From the NCBI GenBank assembly GCA_044449785.1, contig JBIOII010000003.1, positions 1-61,659 on the forward strand: a DNA stretch of 61,659 bases. The letters are read 5' to 3'. The notes beneath the pieces are model-generated. The model did not search any database. It saw only the letters and a list, made by a program, of their open reading frames with translations, and had not been told where the DNA came from. Made by a program: the position numbers and the translations under genes. Source of the DNA: Candidatus Limnocylindrales bacterium (GTDB taxonomy: Bacteria > Chloroflexota > Limnocylindria > Limnocylindrales > CSP1-4). The number at the start of each line of letters is the position of its first letter. Position 1 is the first letter of the stretch. Below are positions 1 to 19,532 of the stretch, one piece after another.

Positions 1-275
1 CTCGCTAACCGACACTCCCTGATCCGAACTCGCGGCAGAGTGCGGTCAGGCTCGACGACCCGCACGGTCACGCAGAACCGCGATCAAGTCATGGCGTTAG
101 AGAGAGACGGCACATGAAGTCGGAGCATCCAGTCCTCTCGCCCCGACCGGTCTTAGCCGGGTCCCGGCGAGTACGGATGGCGACGTGGTGCCCGGTCCAG
201 CAGGACGTTCGGCACTGGCGTCGGACCCGCGACCAGCGAAGGCTCGGGGCGAGGGTGCGGAGGTGCCGCCTGAAC

Positions 276-941
276 ATGCGGCTACATCGCCAGCTGCCAT
301 TCGCCGCCAGTGCGGCCTGGGATCGGCTCGAAGCCGCCCGGATCGAGTCCTTCATTGGGCGGGTCACGATCTCGGTCGTCCTGGTAGCCGTGGCCGTCGT
401 GATCCAGCTCGTGCTCGTGCCCCCGGAGCGCGTGGACATCATTCTCCTGGCCGCTGTCGGCCTCGTGATAGTCACGGCCCGCTGGGCGGGGTTCTGGGCA
501 AGTGTCGTGACTGCCTTCATAGCGGCGGCGCTGATCGACATAGTGCTGCTCCGCCCGGGTGGCGAGCTGATCCTTGGCTCGATCGAGGATATCGGCGCCA
601 TCCTCCTGTTCCTGCTGGTCGCGCTCCTTGGCGCCAGCGCATCACGTGCGCCGACGCCGCAGGCACCTGCAGGCGATCGGGCTGCGATACGCGCATCGGG
701 TTGGCCAGCGGACCTTGTCGAGCTACTCACGGATCGCGAGACGGTCGTACTCGGGTTGCTGGCCACGGGCAAGTCGAACGCCGAGATCGCCGACGATCTC
801 GCGGTCTCACGGAACACCGTGAAGACGCACCTGTCCCACCTCTACGGGAAGCTGGCGGTCACCAGCCGGACGCAGGCGATCGTCCGCGCGCACGAGCTGC
901 ATCTCTGTGAGTCCGAGGGCGCGATTCACCGGATCGGGTGA
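276..941 (+). CDS. Membrane-anchored LuxR-family transcriptional regulator (N-terminal ~4-TM DUF4118-like domain + C-terminal LuxR HTH)
   Basis: C-terminal LTDRETVVLGLLATGKSNAEIADDLAVSRNTVKTHLSHLYGKL is a LuxR HTH; hydrophobic N-terminal helices; start moved from 114 to ATG 276 preceded by GGAGGT (259-264). Confidence 0.8.
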   Translation: MRLHRQLPFAASAAWDRLEAARIESFIGRVTISVVLVAVAVVIQLVLVPPERVDIILLAAVGLVIVTARWAGFWASVVTAFIAAALIDIVLLRPGGELILGSIEDIGAILLFLLVALLGASASRAPTPQAPAGDRAAIRASGWPADLVELLTDRETVVLGLLATGKSNAEIADDLAVSRNTVKTHLSHLYGKLAVTSRTQAIVRAHELHLCESEGAIHRIG

Positions 942-1107
942 CCTATGTCGCCCGCGCGGATGACGACCGCGCGCGGCTATAGGGTGGATGATCCGCCCAT
1001 ACGCGGGAGACTTTGACGCGCGGCCCATCCACCCACGGCCGCCCGAGACCGCGCCGAGCCACTGGCGAGACCGACCCCGCGCTGTGCGTCCCATGGAGGG
1101 ACCCGCC

Positions 1108-1581
1108 ATGCGGAAGCTCATCGTCATCGGAGCTGTCGCGCTCCTCGTCCTCGCCGCGGCCGTGCCGCTCACGAGCGCCAGTACGACGCCCATCACGAAG
1201 CACGTGGATGGCACCATCGTCGTCTCGGAGAACGCCAACCGTACGTGGCTCGCCCGGTTCGAGGTGCGGACGACGTCGGACGTCGTGCAGTTCGGCTACC
1301 TCGAGCTCTACGGGATCGGTGGCGAGGTGGCAGGCCAGATCCACGAGTTCACCGTGTACCACGTCGACTACTACAAGACCGCGTCGCGTGCTCAGGGCGC
1401 CACGCTCCGGATGCAGGAGTGCCTGATCGTCCCATCACGACCGGCCTGCTTCGACAGCCCGTACGAAGTCTCCGACGGGTCGGCAGTCGGCCAGAACGAC
1501 ACCTTCATGGGCCAGATCGGGTGGACCGTCCAGTCGGGCAACATCTCGATCTACTCCACCGGCGGCCAGAACGGGCGGTAG
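1108..1581 (+). CDS. Secreted hypothetical protein (Sec signal peptide)
   Basis: GGAGG SD at 1095-1099, ATG 1108, MRKLIVIGAVALLVLAAAVP signal peptide; no family recognised. Confidence 0.7.
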   Translation: MRKLIVIGAVALLVLAAAVPLTSASTTPITKHVDGTIVVSENANRTWLARFEVRTTSDVVQFGYLELYGIGGEVAGQIHEFTVYHVDYYKTASRAQGATLRMQECLIVPSRPACFDSPYEVSDGSAVGQNDTFMGQIGWTVQSGNISIYSTGGQNGR

Positions 1582-3281: not shown

Positions 3282-4826
3282 ATGATTCCCGAAGTCAACG
3301 ACGCATCGGCCGGCGAAACCTCCATTTCGGCTGAGATCGACGCTCAGCAGCTGTCCGGCCTGGCCGACATGGACCCCGAGACGTTCCGGGCTGCCGCGCA
3401 TTCGGCGGTCGACATCATGGCCGACTACCTGGCGGGAGTCGGCGACCGTCCGGTGATGCCCCCGATCGAACCGGGAAGCCTGCGACCGCTCTTCCCGGCT
3501 ACGCCGCCGGAGTCTCCCGAGCCGATCGAGACGATCCTGGCCGACTACCGCCGGCTCGTGGAACCGAACGTAACTCACTGGCAGCACCCGCGGTTCATGG
3601 CGTACTTCGGCAGCTCGGCGTCGAGTCCGGGGATCATCGGCGAGATGCTGACCGCCGTTCTCAACTCGAACCCGATGCTGTGGCGGACGAGCCCTGCCGG
3701 AACCGAGCTCGAGGGGGTCGTAGTCGACTGGATGCGCCAGGCGCTGGGGCTGCCGGCCGAGTTCGACGGGTTGATCACCGACACGGCATCGACCTCCTCG
3801 ATGCTGGCGCTCGCGGCGGCCCGGCAGGCAGTCGGCTTCGACGCGGCGAGCAAGGGCCTGCCGGGGCGTTCCGATGTCCCGAAGCTGCGCGTCTATGCCT
3901 CCACCGAAGCCCATTCGTCGATAGAGAAGGCTTGCATGACTCTGGGTCTGGGCCGCTCGGGCGTGGCCAAGATCCCGAGCAACGACCGTTTCGAGCTTCG
4001 AATCGATGCCCTCGAAGAGGCGATCGCGGCCGACAAAGCCGCCGGCGTCCGGCCGATTGCCCTCGTCGGAACGATCGGCACGACTTCGACGACTTCCCGC
4101 GATCCGATCGCCGCGATGGCGGCCATCGCCCGACGCGAAGGCATCTGGCTCCATGTCGATGCCGCCTATGCCGGGGTCGTTGCGCTGATCCCGGAGCTTC
4201 GCGCGTCGTTCGAAGGCTGGGAAGAGGCCGATTCGATCGTCACGAATCCGCACAAGTGGTGGTTCGCCCCGGTCGACGCCTCGCTGCTGCTGACTCGTCG
4301 CATGCCGGTCCTGCGGGACGCCTTCAGCCTCGTGCCGGAATACCTCCGCACGCTGGATCGGGAAGGCCCGATCCGCGACTACAACGAGTACACGCCCACG
4401 CTTGGACGGCGATTGCGCGCCGTGAAGCTGTGGATGCACCTGCGCTACTTCGGCCTCGAAGGCCTGCGGCGGCGGGTGTCCCATCACCTCGAGATGGCGG
4501 CCAGCCTCAAGGCCTGGATAGAAGCCGAGCCCGACTTCGAGTTGATGGCGCCGGTGCCGTTCTCGACCGTCTGCTTCCGGTACCGGCCGGCGGGCTTGAT
4601 CGGCCGTGAGGACGAGCCCGGCGTAGCCGCGAGACTCGAAGAATTGAACGTCAAACTCATGGATTCGATCAACCGCACCGGCCAGGCTTTCCTGTCGCAC
4701 ACGAAGCTGAATGGGCGATTCGCCATCCGCATTGCGATCTCCAGCCTGCGAACGCAGGATTCCGATCTGGACCTCGTCTGGGGCATCGTCCGGCGCGAGG
4801 CCGCGGCACTCGGGACCCCGGTCTGA
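3282..4826 (+). CDS. PLP-dependent group II decarboxylase (aromatic-L-amino-acid decarboxylase-like)
   Basis: THWQHPRFMAYF, WRTSPAGTELE, HVDAAYAG and PLP-lysine NPHKW motifs; TACACT -10 at 3218-3223. Confidence 0.9.
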   Translation: MIPEVNDASAGETSISAEIDAQQLSGLADMDPETFRAAAHSAVDIMADYLAGVGDRPVMPPIEPGSLRPLFPATPPESPEPIETILADYRRLVEPNVTHWQHPRFMAYFGSSASSPGIIGEMLTAVLNSNPMLWRTSPAGTELEGVVVDWMRQALGLPAEFDGLITDTASTSSMLALAAARQAVGFDAASKGLPGRSDVPKLRVYASTEAHSSIEKACMTLGLGRSGVAKIPSNDRFELRIDALEEAIAADKAAGVRPIALVGTIGTTSTTSRDPIAAMAAIARREGIWLHVDAAYAGVVALIPELRASFEGWEEADSIVTNPHKWWFAPVDASLLLTRRMPVLRDAFSLVPEYLRTLDREGPIRDYNEYTPTLGRRLRAVKLWMHLRYFGLEGLRRRVSHHLEMAASLKAWIEAEPDFELMAPVPFSTVCFRYRPAGLIGREDEPGVAARLEELNVKLMDSINRTGQAFLSHTKLNGRFAIRIAISSLRTQDSDLDLVWGIVRREAAALGTPV

Positions 4827-4881
4827 GCTGGCTCGCGGGGGCGCGGCCTGTCTCAGACGCCTGAGGCGGTACGATGGCGGA

Positions 4882-5565
4882 GTGAATTACTCGACTGCCG
4901 AGAGACTGGCCTCGGTCGTGGCCGCCGCTGCCACGCCCTGCGTGATCGTCGCCGTCGCCGTGCTGCTGTTCCTCAACCCGATCTGGGTGGCCTTTGACCA
5001 GGGCCGCAGCGATGTGGCGAGCCTGACCGGCTACACGCCGGCCCAGGTCAATCAGGTCACGGGCAGCATCCTCTCGGACCTCGTGTTCGGACCGCCGAAC
5101 TTCGACGTCGCGCTCAACGGCGCACCCGTGCTCGACGTGCGCGAGCGGGGCCACATGGCGGATGTGAGGACGGTTCTGCTGGACCTCGGGCTCGTCGCTT
5201 TTGCCGCGGCGGTCCTGCTCGCGATCGCCGGCGTGGCCAGCCGCGGGCGGCGCTGGTTCTGGCGGGCCGCGGCGAAGGGGGCGCAGATTCTGGTGGTCGG
5301 AGTGGTCGTGGTCGGCCTGGGCTTCGCCCTTTTCTTCGACCAGTTCTTCCAGCTGTTCCATGAAATCTTCTTTCCGCCCGGCACCTACATGTTCGATCCC
5401 CGAACGGAGAAGCTCGTGCAGCTATTCCCGGATCAGTTCTGGTCCGAGACAAGCGTGGCCATAGCCGGGGCCGTTCTGCTGCTGGCTCTGGCCGTGGCCT
5501 GGCTCGGTGGGAGGTTTGGCCGCGAGCCGGACGCGGCCGTCCCCGCGACGGCGGTGGCATCGTGA
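4882..5565 (+). CDS. DUF1461/TIGR01906 integral membrane protein (Lit-like lipoprotein intramolecular transacylase)
   Basis: GHMADVR, FFQLFHEIFF and FDPRTEKLVQLFP motifs; GTG 4882 lies 6 nt after TACGAT (4870-4875), suggesting a leaderless mRNA. Confidence 0.75.
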   Translation: MNYSTAERLASVVAAAATPCVIVAVAVLLFLNPIWVAFDQGRSDVASLTGYTPAQVNQVTGSILSDLVFGPPNFDVALNGAPVLDVRERGHMADVRTVLLDLGLVAFAAAVLLAIAGVASRGRRWFWRAAAKGAQILVVGVVVVGLGFALFFDQFFQLFHEIFFPPGTYMFDPRTEKLVQLFPDQFWSETSVAIAGAVLLLALAVAWLGGRFGREPDAAVPATAVAS

Positions 5566-6758
5566 CGGGTTTGACGCTGGGCCGGGTCTTCGGGACCGAG
5601 GTTCGCGTGCACTGGACCTGGATCTTCGTCCTGGCGTTCATCGCCGTGGTTTTCGGGATCGATCTGAGCGATGGCACGGCGGCAATGTGGCCGACGGCTC
5701 TGGCCTGGGGTTCGTCGATCGCGGTTGCGGCCCTCGTCCTGGCCTCCGTCACCGCCCATGAGCTGGCCCACGTCAAGGTCGCGCGTCGGAACGGGGGGCA
5801 GGTACCCGTCGTGGTGGTCCAGCTGCTGGGCGGGCCGTACATCATGGAGGTCAAGCCAAGGACGGCCGGTGAGGAGTTCCGGATCGCGATCGCCGGCTCG
5901 GCCTTGAGTCTCATCGTCGCCGTGGTCGGAGCTGCGGTTGCGGCTGCGCTCTCCTACGGGCCGGTCAACATCGATCAGGCGCCGGCCTCAGTGCAGGCGG
6001 TCCAATTCGTCGCGGTCATGGTCGCGGTCTTCAATTTGCTGCTCTGTCTTGTCAACCTCGTGCCGGGCTATCCGCTCGACGGCGCTCGAGCCCTTCACTC
6101 GCTCGTTTGGCGGCGGACCGGCAAGGAAGGGGTCGCGACCTCGGTGACCATCCGAGTCGGGCGCTATGTCGGCCTATTGCTGATCGGTACGGCCGCGATG
6201 ACGCTCGCCTTCATGGACTTCATCGTGGGGCTTTCCCTGTTCGTCGCGGGCTGGCTGATGATCGGCTCAAGCAGGCTGATGGACAAGCGCAGCCTGCTCC
6301 AGGGCCTCGTGGCCGGACTGCATGTCAGCGACGCCGAGGATGCCGACCCGGCGCGCGTACCCCCACAGCTGACACTCGATGTATTCGCCGGCGAGTACCT
6401 GGCGGATCGCCTTGGCGCCGCGGCGCTCGTCGAGCGCGGAACGGAGCTCCTCGGGTTAATCGGGACGGCCCAGATACGGCGGATACCGCGGCGGATCTGG
6501 CCGAGGACGCGCACCGAAGAAGCGATGGTCAAGATCGGGGACGTACCGCGGATGGACGGTGACACCGATCTATGGGCCGGACTCGAGGCACTCGAGCGGA
6601 CCGGCCTCGACGCTCTCGTCGTCGCCGCGGCGGGCCCGGGCACCTTGCTGATGACCCGGCGATCGGCCGCGCGGGTGGTTCACGAGAGGGCCGAGGAGCG
6701 GCAGCGCGAGCTCATGGCAATGGCCCTGGTGAGACGAGGGCGGTTCCGTGGCCGCTGA
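5562..6758 (+). CDS. Site-2 protease (M50) with C-terminal CBS pair
   Basis: HELAH zinc motif, NLVPGYPLDG motif, CBS-like C-terminus; GTGA overlap with upstream gene. Confidence 0.9.
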   Translation: MTGLTLGRVFGTEVRVHWTWIFVLAFIAVVFGIDLSDGTAAMWPTALAWGSSIAVAALVLASVTAHELAHVKVARRNGGQVPVVVVQLLGGPYIMEVKPRTAGEEFRIAIAGSALSLIVAVVGAAVAAALSYGPVNIDQAPASVQAVQFVAVMVAVFNLLLCLVNLVPGYPLDGARALHSLVWRRTGKEGVATSVTIRVGRYVGLLLIGTAAMTLAFMDFIVGLSLFVAGWLMIGSSRLMDKRSLLQGLVAGLHVSDAEDADPARVPPQLTLDVFAGEYLADRLGAAALVERGTELLGLIGTAQIRRIPRRIWPRTRTEEAMVKIGDVPRMDGDTDLWAGLEALERTGLDALVVAAAGPGTLLMTRRSAARVVHERAEERQRELMAMALVRRGRFRGR

Positions 6759-12724: not shown

Positions 12725-13189
12725 TTACTCGTGGCAGCCCTGGCAGCGGCCCGAGATCGTGACGTGCGACAGGTCGACGGTGAAACCAAGGTCCTCGGAC
12801 AGCGTCGCGACGATGACCGCCCCGACTTCGGGACGTATCTCCCAGGCCTTGCCGCAGGCCACGCAATAAAGGTGGCCGTGGACCTGGGCCGGCAGGACGT
12901 GGTACTCCTCGCGGCCGTCCGGACCGTGGCCGTGCTTGACGAGCCCGAAATCCTCGAGCACGTCCAGCGTGCGATAGACCGTGGACGGAGTCGTCGTGGA
13001 GTCGCGCTGCCTGCAGCGAGCGATGAGCTCGCTCGCGGTCACGTGGCCGTCTTGCTCTCGCAGGACCTCGACCAACGTCCGCCGCTGCGGGGTCCAGCGC
13101 AGGCCGCTCGCCCGCAACCGGCCCGCGATCCCGTCCCAGGGGCTCGTCTCCGGCGTCCCCGGAACACCGCTCGAAGCTGTCTGTGGCAC
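12725..13189 (-). CDS. Fur-family metalloregulator, Nur-like
   Basis: LRWTPQR, GHVT, STVYRTL, KHGH, HGHLYCVACG, SHVT, CQGC; GTG 13189 with GAAGGA SD (ORF start 13363 over-extended). Confidence 0.9.
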   Translation of the reverse strand: MPQTASSGVPGTPETSPWDGIAGRLRASGLRWTPQRRTLVEVLREQDGHVTASELIARCRQRDSTTTPSTVYRTLDVLEDFGLVKHGHGPDGREEYHVLPAQVHGHLYCVACGKAWEIRPEVGAVIVATLSEDLGFTVDLSHVTISGRCQGCHE

Positions 13190-13213
13190 CTGACGGTCCT
13201 TCTCTATATCCGA

Positions 13214-13242
13214 TTGGGCGAATTGGACCAGAGGCGTAGACT
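13214..13242 (+). promoter_or_regulatory. Putative promoter of the nikMN-Q-O operon
   Basis: TTGGGC (13214-13219)-N17-TAGACT (13237-13242). Confidence 0.45.
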
Positions 13243-13248
13243 CAAGGC

Positions 13249-13276
13249 TAGCGCAACGCGTTGCAATAGCGCAACG
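13249..13276. promoter_or_regulatory. Candidate Fur/Nur-family operator
   Basis: Perfect palindrome GCAACGCGTTGC (13253-13264) within direct repeat TAGCGCAACG (13249-13258, 13267-13276). Confidence 0.65.
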
Positions 13277-13305
13277 TATCGTCTGGCGGCACAGGAGGAG
13301 TTGGG

Positions 13306-14589
13306 TTGCACATCCCCGATGGCTACCTCGCCCCCGCCGTCTCGCTTGCGCTTGCGATCCCAACCGTCCCGGTTTGGGCGGTGGCGACCCAGAAGGTCAA
13401 GAGCGTCCTGAACAACCGCACCGTGCCGCTCCTGGCGATCTTCTCGGCGCTCAGCTTCACGGTGATGATGTTCAACGTCCCGGTTCCCGGCGGCACAACC
13501 GCCCACGGGGTAGGGGGGACGCTGATCGCGGTCGTGCTCGGTCCGTGGGCGGCCGCCATCGCTGTCAGTACCGCGCTGATCCTGCAGGCCCTGTTCTTTG
13601 GCGACGGCGGAGTACTGGCGATCTTCGCCAACTGTCTGAACATGGGCATCCTGCTGCCCTTCATCGGTTACGGCACGTATCGATTGCTGGCAGCCGGATC
13701 ACCGGCCCTGTCGACCCGCAGGGCCGTAGCCGCGGGCGTCGGTGCCTACGTCGGGATCACCGTAGCGGCTCTTGCAGTCGGGATCGAGCTCGGCATCGAG
13801 CCGGTCCTCTTCTCGCAGAACGGCCACGCCCTGTATAGCCCGTACGGCTTGTCCGAGGCGATCCCCGCTATGGTGGCCGCGCACGCTTTCGGCGCCTCGA
13901 TCGTGGAGGCGTTGATCACCGGCCTCGGCGTCACCTATCTCCAGCGGCGCCATCCCGAATACCTGACCAGCCTCAGCCGCATCTTCGCCCCCGACGCCCC
14001 GGTCGAGGGCACGGCCCCGCGGCGATCGATCTGGCGCCCGGTCGCGGTCGCGGTGGCCGGCGGTGCGGCCGCTCTCGCGGTCGTCGGGCTTGTGGCCGGC
14101 GGCGGGGACCCCGGTCGCCTCTTCAACGTGGATTGGGCGCGTGTGGACTGGCCCTCGGTCGGGGCGATGCTGCTCGTAACGGCCGTGGTTGGAATCGTCC
14201 TCGTCCCGACCGCCTACTTGCTCCTTCCTCGCGCCGCCAAACGCGTTGGCGCCGGGTTCGTGGCGATGGCCGTTGTGGCGCCGCTCGGGCTTATCGCGCC
14301 CGGGTTTGCCTACGGCGAAGGGAAGGCGACCGATGTCAAGGAGGCATTCGGCTACGTGCCCGCCGGGCTGCAGAGTCTGTCCGGCGTGTTCAGCGCCCCA
14401 CTCGCCGGGTACGACCTGCCGCTGCCGTTCTTCTCCGCGGCGAAGGCTCCGCTATGGCACGCGGCAATCGGCTACGAGATCTCCGGCATCGTCGGAATAC
14501 TGCTGGTCGGCGGCGCCGTCTACGCGATCGCCCGCTCGCTGCGTGGCGCCGGCTCGGCCGAGGCGCGGGCCGAGGGAGCGCGGTCGTGA
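13306..14589 (+). CDS. cbiM: ECF Ni/Co transporter S component, NikMN/CbiMN-type fusion
   Basis: N-terminal MHIPDG metal-binding motif, FNVPVPGGTTAH, QALFFGDGG; C-terminal NikN-like region (PLGLIAP..YGE...GYVPAGL...APLAGY); TTG start with GGAGGAG SD. Confidence 0.92.
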   Translation: MHIPDGYLAPAVSLALAIPTVPVWAVATQKVKSVLNNRTVPLLAIFSALSFTVMMFNVPVPGGTTAHGVGGTLIAVVLGPWAAAIAVSTALILQALFFGDGGVLAIFANCLNMGILLPFIGYGTYRLLAAGSPALSTRRAVAAGVGAYVGITVAALAVGIELGIEPVLFSQNGHALYSPYGLSEAIPAMVAAHAFGASIVEALITGLGVTYLQRRHPEYLTSLSRIFAPDAPVEGTAPRRSIWRPVAVAVAGGAAALAVVGLVAGGGDPGRLFNVDWARVDWPSVGAMLLVTAVVGIVLVPTAYLLLPRAAKRVGAGFVAMAVVAPLGLIAPGFAYGEGKATDVKEAFGYVPAGLQSLSGVFSAPLAGYDLPLPFFSAAKAPLWHAAIGYEISGIVGILLVGGAVYAIARSLRGAGSAEARAEGARS

Positions 14590-15458
14590 CCACGGCGACC
14601 CCGTCGGTCGGACGGGCCGCCCGCGACGGCCGGATCGGCTGGCTCGAAAAGACCGTCGGCGGAATAACCGCCAACGTCGAGCACGCGATCTTCACGGAGC
14701 GGCATGCGCGATCCGCCGGCTGGCTCCAGCGGCGCGATCCGCGGGCCAAGATGGTCGGCACGCTCATCGCCATCCTGGCCGCGAGCCTTACGAGCTCGCT
14801 GGTCGGCCTTGGGCTCTTGTACGGAGCCACGCTTGCGGCGGCTCGCGCCAGCCGGGTCCCGTTCGGTTTCTTCGTAAAGCGTGTCTGGCTCGGCATTCCG
14901 TTCTTCGCCGGGATCGTCGTGGTGCCCGCGATCTTCTTCGTTCCCGGCGCACGGGTCTTCGATCTGGCGGTCGGGCCCGCGCATCTGGCGCCTTCCTGGA
15001 ACGGTCTGGCGGGAGCGGCGCTGTTCGTCAGCCGAGTCGGCGTCTCCGTCTCGCTGGCCGTCCTGCTGGTCGTAACGACGCCGTGGGCCGACGTCCTCAA
15101 GAGCCTGCGTGCGCTCAAGGTGCCACAGGTTTTCGTGCTCGTCCTGTCGATGACTTATCGATACATCTTCCTTTTCCTTCACACGGCCAACGGCATCCTG
15201 CTGGCGCGGAAGAGCCGCGTGGTGGGTCGCACGACCGGCGCCGAGCAGCGTCGGTGGATCACCGGCACCATGGGCAACCTCATGAGCCGAGCCTTCAAGA
15301 TGAGCAACGACGTGTACGCGGCCATGCTTGCCCGTGGCTTCGGCGGCGAGGTGCGGAGCTACTCGACGTATCGCTTGCGCGTCTCGGACCTGGCCGCGCT
15401 GGCAGGCGTTCTCGGGCTGGCAGTGGCCGTCGTCCTCGCCGGGCGGGCCCTGCCATGA
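14586..15458 (+). CDS. cbiQ: ECF Ni/Co transporter T component (CbiQ/NikQ)
   Basis: LQRRDPRAK, MTYRYIFL, ARKSR, AMLARGFGG motifs; GTGA overlap at 14586. Confidence 0.92.
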   Translation: MTTATPSVGRAARDGRIGWLEKTVGGITANVEHAIFTERHARSAGWLQRRDPRAKMVGTLIAILAASLTSSLVGLGLLYGATLAAARASRVPFGFFVKRVWLGIPFFAGIVVVPAIFFVPGARVFDLAVGPAHLAPSWNGLAGAALFVSRVGVSVSLAVLLVVTTPWADVLKSLRALKVPQVFVLVLSMTYRYIFLFLHTANGILLARKSRVVGRTTGAEQRRWITGTMGNLMSRAFKMSNDVYAAMLARGFGGEVRSYSTYRLRVSDLAALAGVLGLAVAVVLAGRALP

Positions 15459-16381
15459 GCGAGACGGCCCTCGAGCAAGCGGTCGCGGCGGCGCCAGTCG
15501 GTCCGGGCGAGCCGCTGTTCGAGTTCCACGACGTGGGCTACAGCTACGCCGGACGCCAGGTGGCGCTCGAGAGCGTCAGCCTCCGGATCTGGCGGGGCGA
15601 GCGAGTGGCCCTGCTCGGAGCCAACGGCAGCGGCAAGTCCACTCTCCTCAAGCTCCTCGACGGCGTCGTCGGACCGACGCAGGGCAGCATTCGGGCACTC
15701 GGTCGTGACGTCGCGGCGGTGGCGGCCGGTGAAGACGGGTTCCGTTTCCACCGCGAGGTCGGGCTCGTATTCCAGGATCCCGACATACAGCTCTTCAGCG
15801 CCACGGTGCTCGACGACGTCGCCTTCGGACCGCTCCAGCTCGGCCTCACCGGGGAGGAAGTGCGGGCGCGATGCGACGAGGCGATGGCCGAGATGGCGAT
15901 CGCGCACCTGGCGGACCGCGCCCCCTTCGAGCTGTCGGGTGGCGAGAAGAAGAGGGCGGCCATCGCTTCGGTTCTCTCGCTCAGGCCCGAAGTTGTGCTG
16001 CTGGACGAACCGACGGCATCTCTGGACCCGCGAACGAAATGGGTTCTGGTCGACTTGATCCAGCGGCTGGGAAACGCGGGCAGGACGCTGGTGGTGGCCA
16101 CGCACGAGCTGGACATCGTGCCTCTTATCGCCGACCGCGTCGTCGTCCTGAGCGAGCAGGGGCAGATCGTCGCCGACGGCGCCCCGGCCGCGATCCTGGC
16201 CGATCGCGAGCTCCTGATACGGGTGAACCTGATCCACGAGCACCTTCACGAGCACGGTTCGGTAGCTCACTCGCATCCCCACGACGACTCCGAGCGCCAC
16301 CACGGCGAGCGCGTCGAGCCCCACGAAGCCGCGCTGCCGGAGAGGGCGGGCGTCCCGGTGGAAGGCGACCGCCGAGACTAA
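15455..16381 (+). CDS. cbiO: ECF Ni/Co transporter ATPase (CbiO/NikO) with His-rich tail
   Basis: GANGSGKST, FQDPD, LSGGEKK, LLDEPT, ATH motifs; tail HEHLHEHGSVAHSHPH; ATGA overlap at 15455. Confidence 0.93.
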   Translation: MSETALEQAVAAAPVGPGEPLFEFHDVGYSYAGRQVALESVSLRIWRGERVALLGANGSGKSTLLKLLDGVVGPTQGSIRALGRDVAAVAAGEDGFRFHREVGLVFQDPDIQLFSATVLDDVAFGPLQLGLTGEEVRARCDEAMAEMAIAHLADRAPFELSGGEKKRAAIASVLSLRPEVVLLDEPTASLDPRTKWVLVDLIQRLGNAGRTLVVATHELDIVPLIADRVVVLSEQGQIVADGAPAAILADRELLIRVNLIHEHLHEHGSVAHSHPHDDSERHHGERVEPHEAALPERAGVPVEGDRRD

Positions 16382-16492: not shown

Positions 16493-16543
16493 ATGCCAGA
16501 GTCGAGCTATTCGGCCGCCGCTCCAGCCGGACCGATCCGATGA
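16493..16543 (+). CDS. Putative 16-aa leaderless uORF (MPESSYSAAAPAGPIR)
   Basis: ATG at predicted +1; its TGA (16541-16543) overlaps the ATG (16540) of the next gene. Confidence 0.35.
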   Translation: MPESSYSAAAPAGPIR

Positions 16544-18165
16544 CCGGCCCCTACCAGTCGCCGTTCGACGCCGCTTCCCGGAGGAACCGCCCGCGCCGGC
16601 TTCTGGTCGTCGGCGCGGCGGTGGGGCTGGCCGTCGTCGTGGCGGCAATGGCGGCCTGGCACCCGATGGCAACCAACGCGGCGCGAACGAGCGTGACCAT
16701 TCTCGGGGCCTCGGCAGCGTCGCTGGACCCGGCGGTCCAGTCCGATGCGGGCAGCGCCCAGGTCGTCTCGCAGGTCTTCGAGTCGCTGACCGCAATTGAC
16801 GTTTCGGGGCGCGTCCAGCCCGCCCTCGCGGCCAGCTGGACGTCGAGCAACGGCGGCAAGATCGTCGTCTTTCATCTGCGGACGGGGCTGACTTTCTCAG
16901 ATGGGACGCCCCTGGGCGCCGCGGACGTCGTGTCGAGCTGGATGAGGGTGCTCAATCCCAGCCAGCCGAGCCAGCTCGCCTCATTGCTCGACGGCGTCGT
17001 GGGGGCAAGCGCCTATCGAGAGGGGAGCGGCCAGGCCTCGGGTGTCGGAATAAAGGCCATCGGCTCGACGGACGTGGAGGTAGATCTCGTCAGCCCGGAC
17101 GCGGACTTCCCATCGATCGCCTCGAGCCCGACGCTCGCGGTCGTGCCGCCGCAGCTGGACTCGAACCCGGCGCTGCTGGCCCCGGGGACCTTCGTGGGCA
17201 GCGGCGCCTACGTGGTTTCCGCCCTGACCGCTACCGAGACCACTCTGACGGCGAATCCTCACTACTGGGCCGGTTCCCCATCGATAACCACGGTCCATCT
17301 GCTCAGTAGTATCGGCGGGAAGAGCCCGGTCTCCGAGTTCCAGGCCGGCAATCTCGACTACACGCCGATCTCGCTGTACGACGCCTCGTGGATCGCCTAC
17401 GACTCGACGCTCGGGCCGGCTCTCCGCATAGAGCCGTCGCCATCGACGGAGTTCTATGGCTTCAACACGACCAAGGCGCCGTTCAACAACGTGCACGTCC
17501 GGCGCGCCTTCGAGATGGGCATCAACTGGAACCGCATCGTCGCGCTGCTGTCGGACCCGCTCGAGGTTTCGGCGACCGGCATGGTTCCGGCCGGCGTTCC
17601 CGGCCACAGCGCGAACAACTACGGGCCGGAATTCAACCTGGCGCAGGCCAGGTCGGAGCTGGCGGCGGCCGGCTTCCCAAACGGCGTCGGCTTCCCGAAG
17701 ATCACCCTGGTCACCGGTGGGGCCACCCTGGACGGCGCGATAATCCGCCAGCTGCACGACAACCTCGGCATCGACATCGGGTACCTGATCGAGGATTGGA
17801 CGACGTACAACCAGCAGCTCCTGACCGACCCGCCGGCGTTCTGGGAGATGGACTGGGTCGCCGACTATCCAGGCGCGAACGATTTCCTCGGACTTCTCCT
17901 GGGTTCGGGTAAGACGAACAACTTCGGCCGATGGACGTCGCCCGATTTCGATGCCGCAATCGCTAAGGCGCTCGCCGCTACCGATGCGACCTCGATGCAG
18001 CAAGCGTTCGATCAGGCGCAGGCGATCGTGCTCGACCAGGCCCCGGTCATTCCGGTCGACTACGGTGCCGGCTATTCGCTGGCGGCGAAGGGTCTTCTTG
18101 GGGCGCAGCCGAACGGCCAGGGACTCGTGCGCTACGCCGGACTGGCCTGGGCGGCGGGCGCATGA
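16540..18165 (+). CDS. ABC transporter family 5 substrate-binding protein (OppA/DppA-like), TM-anchored, no cognate permease in window
   Basis: SLDPA, FESLT, FHLRTGLTFSDGTPL, GSGAY, WVADYPGANDFL motifs; no lipobox Cys. Confidence 0.9.
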   Translation: MTGPYQSPFDAASRRNRPRRLLVVGAAVGLAVVVAAMAAWHPMATNAARTSVTILGASAASLDPAVQSDAGSAQVVSQVFESLTAIDVSGRVQPALAASWTSSNGGKIVVFHLRTGLTFSDGTPLGAADVVSSWMRVLNPSQPSQLASLLDGVVGASAYREGSGQASGVGIKAIGSTDVEVDLVSPDADFPSIASSPTLAVVPPQLDSNPALLAPGTFVGSGAYVVSALTATETTLTANPHYWAGSPSITTVHLLSSIGGKSPVSEFQAGNLDYTPISLYDASWIAYDSTLGPALRIEPSPSTEFYGFNTTKAPFNNVHVRRAFEMGINWNRIVALLSDPLEVSATGMVPAGVPGHSANNYGPEFNLAQARSELAAAGFPNGVGFPKITLVTGGATLDGAIIRQLHDNLGIDIGYLIEDWTTYNQQLLTDPPAFWEMDWVADYPGANDFLGLLLGSGKTNNFGRWTSPDFDAAIAKALAATDATSMQQAFDQAQAIVLDQAPVIPVDYGAGYSLAAKGLLGAQPNGQGLVRYAGLAWAAGA

Positions 18166-19532
18166 ACCGGCCGCGACGCCCCGTGCTGGCCCGAGTCGCG
18201 GCGGCGGCCGCCTGCGCCCTTCTCGCCCTGATGGCTCTCGCCGGCCAGATGGTCGGCGCATCGGTCTCGTTTGGAACGCCCACTTCTACGTCAACGTTCG
18301 GGACGGGCATCGTCTTCGTGCAGCCGATCAGCGGCTCGGGCTTTACACAAGCCGACATCGTTCTGTCCCTGCCGGGCGACGTGGGGCCGAGCGTCGTCTC
18401 GCTGACGAGCGCCGCCGTTTCGTCGACCTCGCTCACGTTCACGTTCGACACTTCGAACGGCCAGATCCAGCCCAACACCCAGGTAACGGCTTACTTCCAG
18501 GTCGTCTTCTCCGACGGTTCCACGCAGACCGGGCCGGTCATCCACGCCACTTACCAGGACGACCGCTTCCACTGGCAGACGCTCTCCGGGAAGCTCGTCA
18601 CCCTTCACTGGTATTCGGGCTCGACGAGCTTCGCCCAGCAGGCACTGACGATGGGCGAGAACGGGATCGCGAAATCGGCGCAGTTCATGGGTGTTACCGA
18701 GACGCAGCCGGTGGACTTCTTCGTGTACGCCGACCAGCAGTCGTTCTACGACGCTCTGGGGCCGGGTACGAGAGATAACGTCGGCGGCGAGGCGAACACC
18801 ACCACCCGGACCCTGTTCGCGCTGATCCCGCCCGACCAGCTTTCGTACGCGAGCACCGTCGTCCCGCACGAGCTCACGCACGTCGTTTTCGCCGACGGAA
18901 CCAGCAATCCCTACCATTCGCCGCCGCGGTGGCTCAACGAAGGCCTGGCCGTCTACCTCTCGCAGGGTTACGACAGCAGCGACAAAGGGCTCGTCTCGTC
19001 CGCCGCTGCATCGAAGACCCTCATGCCGCTGAGCGCCCTGACGGGAGAGTTCCCCACTGATACCGACCGCTTCTACCTCGCCTACGCCGAGTCGGTTTCT
19101 TCGGTCGACTACATGATCCGAACCTACGGGCAGCCCGCGATCGCGAAGATGGTCAAGGCCTACGGCACCGGCGCCTCCGACGACGAAGCCTTCACCGCCG
19201 CGTTCGGCGTCACTGCCGAGGCTGTCGACAAGGCCTGGCTCGCCCAGAACGGCATAACGTCTTCTCCCACGTTCGGCCCCGAGACGGCACCGGCCGGCCC
19301 CGTTCCGCCCGGGTGGACGAACGCCGGGGGTGTCACGGTCACCGCGCCACCCGCTGCCGCGGGCACGGCTGCGCCGACCGAGACGACGGCCAGGACCGCC
19401 GGATCGACGGCCTCGTCCGGGAGCTCAGTCGAGCTGCTGCTGGCGGGCGTCATCGCCGCGGCCGGCGTGGTTCTGATCGGCGTTGCCATCGTCCTATACA
19501 GGCGGCCCGATCGGTCCCCGCCTCCGTTTTGA
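18162..19532 (+). CDS. Peptidase MA-family (gluzincin) metallohydrolase with C-terminal TM anchor
   Basis: HELTH...WLNEGLA, AYAESVS motifs; signal peptide; Pro/Thr linker then TM and RRPDR tail; ATGA overlap. Confidence 0.85.
   Translation: MNRPRRPVLARVAAAAACALLALMALAGQMVGASVSFGTPTSTSTFGTGIVFVQPISGSGFTQADIVLSLPGDVGPSVVSLTSAAVSSTSLTFTFDTSNGQIQPNTQVTAYFQVVFSDGSTQTGPVIHATYQDDRFHWQTLSGKLVTLHWYSGSTSFAQQALTMGENGIAKSAQFMGVTETQPVDFFVYADQQSFYDALGPGTRDNVGGEANTTTRTLFALIPPDQLSYASTVVPHELTHVVFADGTSNPYHSPPRWLNEGLAVYLSQGYDSSDKGLVSSAAASKTLMPLSALTGEFPTDTDRFYLAYAESVSSVDYMIRTYGQPAIAKMVKAYGTGASDDEAFTAAFGVTAEAVDKAWLAQNGITSSPTFGPETAPAGPVPPGWTNAGGVTVTAPPAAAGTAAPTETTARTAGSTASSGSSVELLLAGVIAAAGVVLIGVAIVLYRRPDRSPPPF

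Follow-up and report, generated by a model that had tools for sequence, protein, structure and literature searches.

The Fur-family regulator Nur of Streptomyces coelicolor binds to the nikM promoter of the nikMNOQ operon in a nickel-dependent manner (An et al. 2009, PMC2691836), and for this reason a link between Nur and an importer of the energy-coupling factor (ECF) type is not new in itself. Our search of the literature did not find a report of Nur outside Actinobacteria. In the seven Chloroflexi that had been sequenced at the time, SodN was not found, and Nur went unmentioned (Zhang et al. 2009, PMC2667541). Here, we describe a Nur-like gene and the importer next to it in a stretch of 61,659 nucleotides (the window) from contig JBIOII010000003.1 of assembly GCA_044449785.1, which stems from a Candidatus Limnocylindrales bacterium of the Chloroflexota. 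We consider it likely that this locus is a self-contained nickel-uptake switch, consisting of a repressor of the Nur subfamily and an adjoining nickel importer, with the nickel-dependent superoxide dismutase (Ni-SOD) as its main client. An earlier, sequence-only reading had proposed a Nur-ECF module for nickel homeostasis, a view that is now supported by the closest solved relative of the regulator, by its phylogeny, by the presence of the Ni-site triad and by the NikM type of the transporter. The background given in that reading, according to which Nur controls nikABCDE and superoxide dismutase (SOD) genes in Actinobacteria, was incomplete, because it omitted nikMNOQ as a Nur target (PMC2691836).

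The likeness to S. coelicolor Nur (3EYY) extends over the Fur-family fold, membership in the same clade, the triad of His70, His72 and His126, the M-site residues His33, His88 and His90, and the half-site TTGCAA of the operator. Furthermore, the apparent target is in both cases an ECF-type nikM operon, and the apparent client enzyme is Ni-SOD. Unlike its Streptomyces counterpart, to which it is approximately 39% identical, the regulator described here carries Gln in place of His86 and Ser in place of Asp37, has a predicted operator of 6-4-6 rather than 6-5-6 spacing, lies head-to-head with its target, seems to have a regulon that consists of a single local site, and is found in the Chloroflexota.

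Within the window, the nur-like gene (12725-13189, minus strand) encodes a protein of 154 amino acids, with a GTG start and a TAA stop. As the sequence-only reading had it, this gene is placed head-to-head with a complete operon of the cbiM/Q/O type, from which it is separated by a divergent control region of exactly 116 bp (13190-13305), whose orthologues we aligned by eye. The operon is encoded on the plus strand and comprises nik(MN) (13306-14589; 427 amino acids, TTG start), nikQ (14586-15458) and nikO (15455-16381), the three genes being joined by 4-bp overlaps (GTGA and ATGA).

The assignment of the regulator to Nur is based on several lines of evidence. The Fur-family domain PF01475 covers residues 28-138 (E 1.8e-21), and the closest solved structure is that of S. 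coelicolor Nur (E 4.6e-23, 85 bits), followed by Mur from Rhizobium leguminosarum (57 bits). In the alignment to Nur 3EYY, His33, His70 and His72 (within the sequence KHGH), His81, His88, His90 and His126 (within SHVT) are retained, as are Cys93, Cys96, Cys133 and Cys136, whereas His86, His87 and His75 are replaced by Gln, Val and Asp, respectively. In the numbering of the protein itself, the triad corresponds to His86, His88 and His142. The alignment thus agrees with the earlier reading in that the equivalents of the Ni-site triad and of His33, His88 and His90 are present, and in that His86 is a Gln.

For phylogenetic trees, we used near-full-length hits from a search of 1.84 billion cluster representatives, together with references from Protein Data Bank (PDB) alignments and from E. 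coli K-12. In the careful maximum-likelihood tree, the query, other Limnocylindria and S. coelicolor Nur were united in one clade of 57 triad-bearing sequences (ultrafast bootstrap 99, SH-aLRT 96). Outside this clade were Fur of E. coli, of Campylobacter jejuni and of the Bacillus type, Mur of R. leguminosarum, and Zur of Mycobacterium tuberculosis, S. coelicolor and E. coli, and also the second Fur paralogue of the same genome and 13 nearer outgroup representatives. Across the tree, His70 and His72 were found together in the Nur clade only, and inside it the triad of His70, His72 and His126 is near-universal. Position 86, in turn, is mostly Ala, Gln, Asp or Glu in the clade, and His at this position is essentially restricted to Streptomyces. 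In S. coelicolor, the H86A variant of Nur still binds DNA, while H70A, H72A and H126A each abolish binding (An et al. 2009, PMC2691836). Hence, the exchange of His86 for Gln need not speak against membership in the Nur subfamily, since the position varies within the clade and the H86A protein retains binding. The phylogeny places the protein with Nur and apart from the Fur, Mur and Zur references, as the sequence-only reading had anticipated. Judged by its sequence, the regulator is a member of the Nur subfamily of the Fur family.

To examine the surroundings of the regulator, we compiled from named genomes the 80 related loci that matched best, which amount to 626 kb in total. In 37 of them, the regulator gene lies head-to-head with a fused nik(MN)QO operon, and in another 18, it lies head-to-head with a split system that is more distant (33-41% identity) and consists of NikM and a PDGLE-domain NikN, followed by Q and O. 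Two loci have nikMNQO followed by nur on one strand, and eleven have a NicO-like permease, a weak match (23 bits, below the cut-off) that carries the HX4DH signature of NicO/NiCoT. Among the remainder, nine have other neighbours and three have too little flanking sequence, such that a candidate nickel or cobalt transporter adjoins the regulator in 68 of the 77 loci with enough flank. This number argues that the pairing of regulator and importer is not chance adjacency. Also next to a member of another Nur subclade, the following gene is a NicO gene. Since the neighbours are nickel or cobalt transporters of several kinds, the common theme is the uptake of one of these metals, and it is very probable that the regulator controls the importer gene cluster next to it in the window.

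Some relatives (L004, which is ERZ25039554 contig_16875, as well as L048 and L076) show nik(MN)QO split into several reading-frame pieces beside an intact nur, and the broken frames could be due either to decay of the importer or to indel errors in the assembly. In a further relative (L090), the nur-like gene and its NicO-like neighbour are located between the genes for an FTR1 iron permease resembling EfeU and a Dyp-type peroxidase resembling EfeB (1999-2991 and 4476-5660).

The search that produced this set used a narrow alignment and returned Chloroflexota only, and a second search with a profile again yielded mostly Limnocylindria. All 80 loci stem from metagenome-assembled genomes (MAGs) that are titled Candidatus Limnocylindrales/Limnocylindria, Chloroflexota or Chloroflexi, a few of them with other Chloroflexota-level labels, and their isolate names refer to peat, fen and soil. 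The closest of the related loci has a regulator that is 90% identical and shows full synteny. Because such near-identical, syntenic loci are titled Candidatus Limnocylindrales or Chloroflexota, the lineage is not actinobacterial, which the earlier reading had regarded as probable. The G+C content in the window is 65-71%.

Alternatively, the protein could sense zinc, iron, manganese or peroxide in the manner of Zur, Fur, Mur or PerR, its place beside a nickel importer being incidental. This would fit the public annotation of its relatives, which are called 'ferric uptake regulator', and the best NCBIfam match, which is to the Bacillus-type Fur model, albeit far below threshold; also, zinc can occupy the M-site in the Nur crystal (PMC2691836). 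Yet the protein falls into the clade of Nur, from which the Fur, Mur and Zur references are excluded, it adjoins transporters of the nickel/cobalt type from several unrelated families across its relatives, and its predicted operator, described below, is no 7-1-7 Fur or Zur box. Moreover, the genome encodes a separate Zur-like protein, the second Fur paralogue mentioned above (contig C115, L002:1217-1942, minus strand), whose best solved relative in the PDB is M. tuberculosis Zur/FurB. It lies beside a gene (275-1192, minus strand) that, judged by eye, resembles a solute-binding protein of the ZnuA/TroA type, such that zinc probably has its own sensor. An iron-type Fur was not seen in this 64.5%-complete genome. 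Taken together, we attach hardly any probability to a sensor for one of these other signals, and keep to a regulator of the Nur subfamily.

The control region contains a predicted operator with 6-4-6 spacing, GCGCAAcgcgTTGCAA (13251-13266), whose core is the palindrome GCAACGCGTTGC (13253-13264), as suggested by a weight matrix, by its conservation and by the published half-site. The element TTGCAAC-N2-GTTGCAA is present in 17/17 orthologous spacers that were compared, and the weight matrix was built from these 17 sites and used at a threshold of 15 bits. In the 2.31-Mb genome itself, two matches of at least 15 bits were obtained, one of them being the operator at 13251-13266; the other (C53:25) lies at a contig end, where a coding frame appears to terminate, and was treated as a chance match. 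The related loci contained 70 matches in 626 kb, distributed over 69 of the 80 loci, compared to a background of approximately one per 2.3 Mb, and nearly all of them are located just upstream of the regulator gene or of the adjoining transporter gene. The palindrome accompanies nur across the different kinds of transporter, which argues that it is tied to the regulator and not to one particular transporter.

A degenerate version of the operator pattern had one to few matches per genome in 15 genomes of the genus, and a mirrored control pattern had approximately one per genome. Of the 14 genomes with any match, ten have one in the nur-nikM spacer. A recurrent extra match in relatives, TGCAACCGGTTGCR, was rejected as an operator and ascribed to chance, because it falls within what resembles the coding sequence of MoaA. 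With so few matches per genome and the extra one within this MoaA-like sequence, the regulon appears to be local. In genome G206 of the genus (L142:1501-1514), however, the same operator element, TGCAACAAGTTGCA, is found just upstream of a stand-alone NiCoT gene (1612-2682; NicO, 256 bits), and no nur or nikM homologue was found within 1.5 kb of this gene. This position of the operator suggests that the regulon of some genomes includes a second nickel importer.

The footprinted Nur box of Streptomyces is tTGCaa-N5-ttGCAA, i.e., 6-5-6 (PMC2691836), a consensus that we took as published. The hexamer of the predicted operator is the same TTGCAA half-site, but the gap is one base shorter, such that the site has 6-4-6 spacing and does not match the published 6-5-6 spacing. 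In the related loci, the half-sites are 4 bp apart in 70 of 80 and 5 bp apart in four, with the other gap lengths (2, 3, 5, 6 and 7 bp) occurring in 4-21 loci. We see roughly an even chance that the Nur orthologues of the Limnocylindria recognize a 16-bp operator of the 6-4-6 type, as opposed to the 17-bp 6-5-6 box of Streptomyces, with the half-site and the Ni-site unchanged. If this is true, the two DNA-binding domains of the dimer, when loaded with nickel, would be spaced differently (centre to centre) in the two lineages. Nature would then offer a way to examine the idea that the S1-S2 sheet is held in place by the Ni-site, and that the geometry of the operator is set in this manner.

With respect to the promoter of the nik genes, a candidate -10 hexamer, TAGACT (13237-13242, plus strand), is found as such or as a TAnAnT variant in 17/17 compared spacers. 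A candidate -35 hexamer, TTGGGC (13214-13219, plus strand), coincides with a GATTGnnGCG block that is conserved in the spacers at the genus level and located 17 nt upstream of TAGACT. In the genus to which the window belongs, the operator follows downstream of the conserved TAGACT. In more distant relatives, a TAnAnT element follows the second hexamer of the operator at a distance of 17 nt, such that this hexamer would itself serve as the -35 element. Repression would be compatible with either position, over the -35 or just past the -10. There is also a third half-site, GCGCAA (13269-13274), which forms part of a direct repeat, AGCGCAACG, with copies at 13250-13258 and 13268-13276, 18 bp apart; apart from this genome, only the closest relative (L006) has it, and it is absent from the others.

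The difference in spacing from the footprinted Nur box might be taken to mean that another factor binds the palindrome, or that the Nur-like protein is an activator, acts as an apo-repressor or acts on its own gene only, all the more so because the spacer that holds the site is shared by two divergent genes, such that the sequence does not reveal which of them is regulated. We judge this very unlikely in view of the fact that the palindrome accompanies nur whichever transporter family adjoins, that it occurs approximately once per genome, besides the chance matches in the MoaA-like coding sequence, that it contains the Nur half-site TTGCAA (PMC2691836), and that its position over the -35 or just past the -10 is the one expected for repression. 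We thus retain the view that the palindrome is an operator at which the Nur-like protein would repress the importer genes.

The importer is of interest for the question of which metal the module serves. In Thermoanaerobacter tengcongensis NikM2 (4M58), Ni(II) is bound by Met1, His2 and His67 (PMC3945884), and as in this ECF S component, Met1, His2 and His67 are found in NikM from the window. The two proteins are 57% identical (230 bits), as opposed to 42 bits to CbiM of Rhodobacter capsulatus (5X3X), and Thr65, Gln94 and the equivalents of His190 and Glu198 are retained in addition to Met1-His2 (in MHIPDG) and His67 (in GGTTAH). The Pfam domain CbiM (PF01891) covers residues 2-218 of the protein (E 1.9e-53). 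By these similarities, the S component of the importer is of the NikM type and not of the CbiM type. The requirement for an N-terminal Met1-His2 fixes the position of the start codon, which is preceded by a Shine-Dalgarno sequence, AGGAGGAG (13293-13300, plus strand); orthologues of nik(MN) start with ATG, GTG or TTG at the equivalent position.

Like Nik(MN)QO of R. capsulatus, in which M and a second membrane part form a natural fusion, NikM continues into a hydrophobic membrane extension of approximately 200 amino acids. The extension occupies the position of NikN, and Pfam matches none of it. Unlike in R. capsulatus Nik(MN)QO and TtNikM2, similarity of the extension to NikN of the PDGLE type is not detectable: BLASTP was not significant, and hhalign aligned the last helix only, with a probability of 67%. 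The NikQ protein is a transmembrane (T) component of the CbiQ type (PF02361; TIGR02454, 149.9 bits versus a cut-off of 111.8), and NikO is an ECF ATPase (PF00005, ABC_tran), for which the best NCBIfam models are ECF- or cobalt-type ATPases, none of which reaches its equivalog cut-off. At its C-terminus, NikO carries a His-rich tail, HEHLHEHGSVAHSHPHDDSERHHGERVEPH (residues 261-290; 16235-16324, plus strand), of the form HEHLHEHG..HSHPH..HH. It is conserved in orthologues, which have a median of 9 His in their last 60 residues (38 NikO proteins), and other Limnocylindria whose Nik system is split have a His-rich segment at the N-terminus of NikO instead. The tail may be a cytoplasmic element for the binding or hand-over of nickel, perhaps one that senses nickel at the transporter.

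Genome content gives further indications of the metal. We examined this genome, a 2.31-Mb MAG that is 64.5% complete, together with 20 relatives (21 genomes), and 14 known genomes served as controls. Ni-SOD (PF09055, Sod_Ni) was found in 21/21 of the near relatives and in 0/14 control genomes, and at the level of the class it is present in 194/201 genomes, representing 43/43 genera. Fe/Mn-SOD (Sod_Fe_C), in contrast, was found in 0/21 genomes and in 1/201 of the class, such that the regulator described here, unlike that of S. coelicolor, has no sodF to repress; the comparison covered the Ni and Fe/Mn types. The genome itself has two sodN genes with the nickel hook HCDVPCGIY (C4:34772-35149 and C24:6053-6430), one of which is followed by a gene for an S26 peptidase resembling SodX, as determined by a scan, and the other by a similar-looking open reading frame. 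The search for nickel enzymes, which the sequence-only reading had put forward as a way of checking its proposal, thus returned Ni-SOD in every genome of this set; urease was absent, and a full-length NiFe hydrogenase was found in one relative only. Partial matches to NiFe hydrogenase were rejected, since they are probably NuoD-like. Nickel most likely feeds Ni-SOD, which is the sole SOD type, among the two tested, that was found in the lineage.

Instead of nickel, the module might serve cobalt, or nickel and cobalt alike, with the transporter acting as a CbiMNQO system and the regulator responding to Co(II). In favour of this, the best NCBIfam models are named 'cobalt transporter CbiM/CbiQ', and TtNikM2 crystallizes with Co(II), too, using ligands that NikM and CbiM have in common (PMC3945884). 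Nevertheless, the similarity of NikM to NikM2 (230 bits) far exceeds that to a true CbiM (42 bits), the regulator has the Ni-specific site of Nur, and Ni-SOD is present nearly throughout the class. Furthermore, CbiC of corrin synthesis was found in 0/21 genomes, which argues against a synthesis of corrin with a demand for free cobalt. A riboswitch for cobalamin (B12) is likewise missing from the locus: as the earlier reading had noted, there is none in the window, where the Rfam matches are two tRNAs and a c-di-GMP-II riboswitch only. The single B12 riboswitch (RF00174) of the genome lies on another contig (C7:2452-2633), upstream of a different ECF-like cluster. The context thus favours nickel over cobalt, with Ni-SOD near-universal, CbiC absent and the B12 riboswitch elsewhere, and a module for cobalt, or for both metals, appears distinctly unlikely to us. 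Rather, we infer that the importer transports nickel in preference to cobalt.

The cluster downstream of the B12 riboswitch on contig C7 extends to position ~7952 and encodes a secreted repeat protein, a T component resembling CbiQ, a double ABC ATPase and a protein with a weak match to ECF S components. To judge from these genes, it is probably an ECF system for the scavenging of B12 in a lineage without CbiC.

Like CbiMNQO systems under the control of B12 riboswitches, the locus has M, Q and O components, but unlike them it has no riboswitch, the lineage has no CbiC, and the B12 riboswitch of the lineage precedes the different cluster just described. With NikR-controlled uptake, as for nikABCDE in E. 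coli and for many NikMNQO loci, the module would share the principle that nickel uptake is switched off by a repressor in its nickel-bound form. However, its regulator belongs to a family unrelated to NikR, which is a ribbon-helix-helix protein. The domain NikR_C (PF08753) was found in 0/21 genomes, whereas the same search found it in 5/14 control genomes, and the earlier statement that there is no NikR gene in the window thus holds for the whole genome set.

The following mechanism can be envisaged. When cytoplasmic Ni(II) is sufficient, the dimer of the regulator would be metallated at the M-site (the equivalents of His33, His88 and His90) and at the Nur-specific Ni-site (the equivalents of His70, His72 and His126). 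The metallated dimer would bind the palindrome at 13251-13266, directly downstream of the likely -10 hexamer TAGACT, and thereby block the transcription of nik(MN)QO; the divergent nur gene would probably be affected as well. When nickel is scarce, the repressor would leave the DNA, and the ECF importer would be made. NikMN would then capture Ni(II) via its N-terminal Met1-His2 and His67, NikQ would couple the components, and NikO would hydrolyse ATP. The main client would be Ni-SOD, for which the genome has two sodN-sodX pairs. What the sequences show directly is the family membership of the regulator, its conserved residues, the conserved operator that travels with it and the nickel economy of the genomes.

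Several considerations weigh against it. That nickel is the effector, that control is by repression, where the promoter elements lie and that the regulator binds to DNA are all points that we infer from sequence. Within the regulator, the M-site has Gln in place of His86, and Ser replaces Asp37, for which contact with DNA has been proposed in Nur, and the spacing of 6-4-6 versus 6-5-6 means that DNA recognition may not be identical to that in Streptomyces. A strict scan of the spacer for the sigma-70 consensus called no promoter, the candidate hexamers included. The sequences in the tree were drawn from the top hits of the query, and the references comprised Nur, Fur, Mur and Zur, but neither PerR nor Irr. 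On the side of the importer, the sequence by itself is also compatible with cobalt transport, because TtNikM2 binds Co(II) as well and the ligands are common to CbiM and NikM. Finally, absences in the genome itself are weak, given that it is 64.5% complete, and they rest on the relatives.

Two further features of the window deserve mention. Past the end of nikO, at a distance of 158 bp, are genes for a family-5 solute-binding protein of the Opp/Dpp-like kind and a peptidase-MA protein (16540-19532), and permease genes are absent nearby. The binding protein (16540-18165) was considered as NikA and rejected (NCBIfam, 77.7 bits versus a cut-off of 393). The gene after nikO in a close relative is instead one for a GGDEF protein, and for this reason the binding protein and the peptidase-MA gene are probably not part of the nickel module. 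The c-di-GMP-II riboswitch mentioned above is a c-di-GMP-II-GAG aptamer at 997-1085 (Rfam, 60.2 bits, gathering score 40).

In summary, this is a known type of system, now in the Chloroflexota, with the 6-4-6 operator as its variant feature and a class that relies on Ni-SOD as its setting. It extends the Nur-type sensor, which according to the literature that we searched has been studied experimentally only in Streptomyces, to an abundant class of uncultured Chloroflexota from soil, peat and freshwater. Also, it corrects a widespread annotation, in that thousands of relatives are labelled 'ferric uptake regulator'. The operator is sharply defined and differs from the Streptomyces box by one base in its spacing, which makes it directly testable with purified protein. 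For the class, a coherent nickel economy emerges that comprises a sensor, an importer and Ni-SOD, next to which hardly any other superoxide dismutase was found, and this leads to the prediction that the availability of nickel limits the defence of these organisms against oxidative stress.

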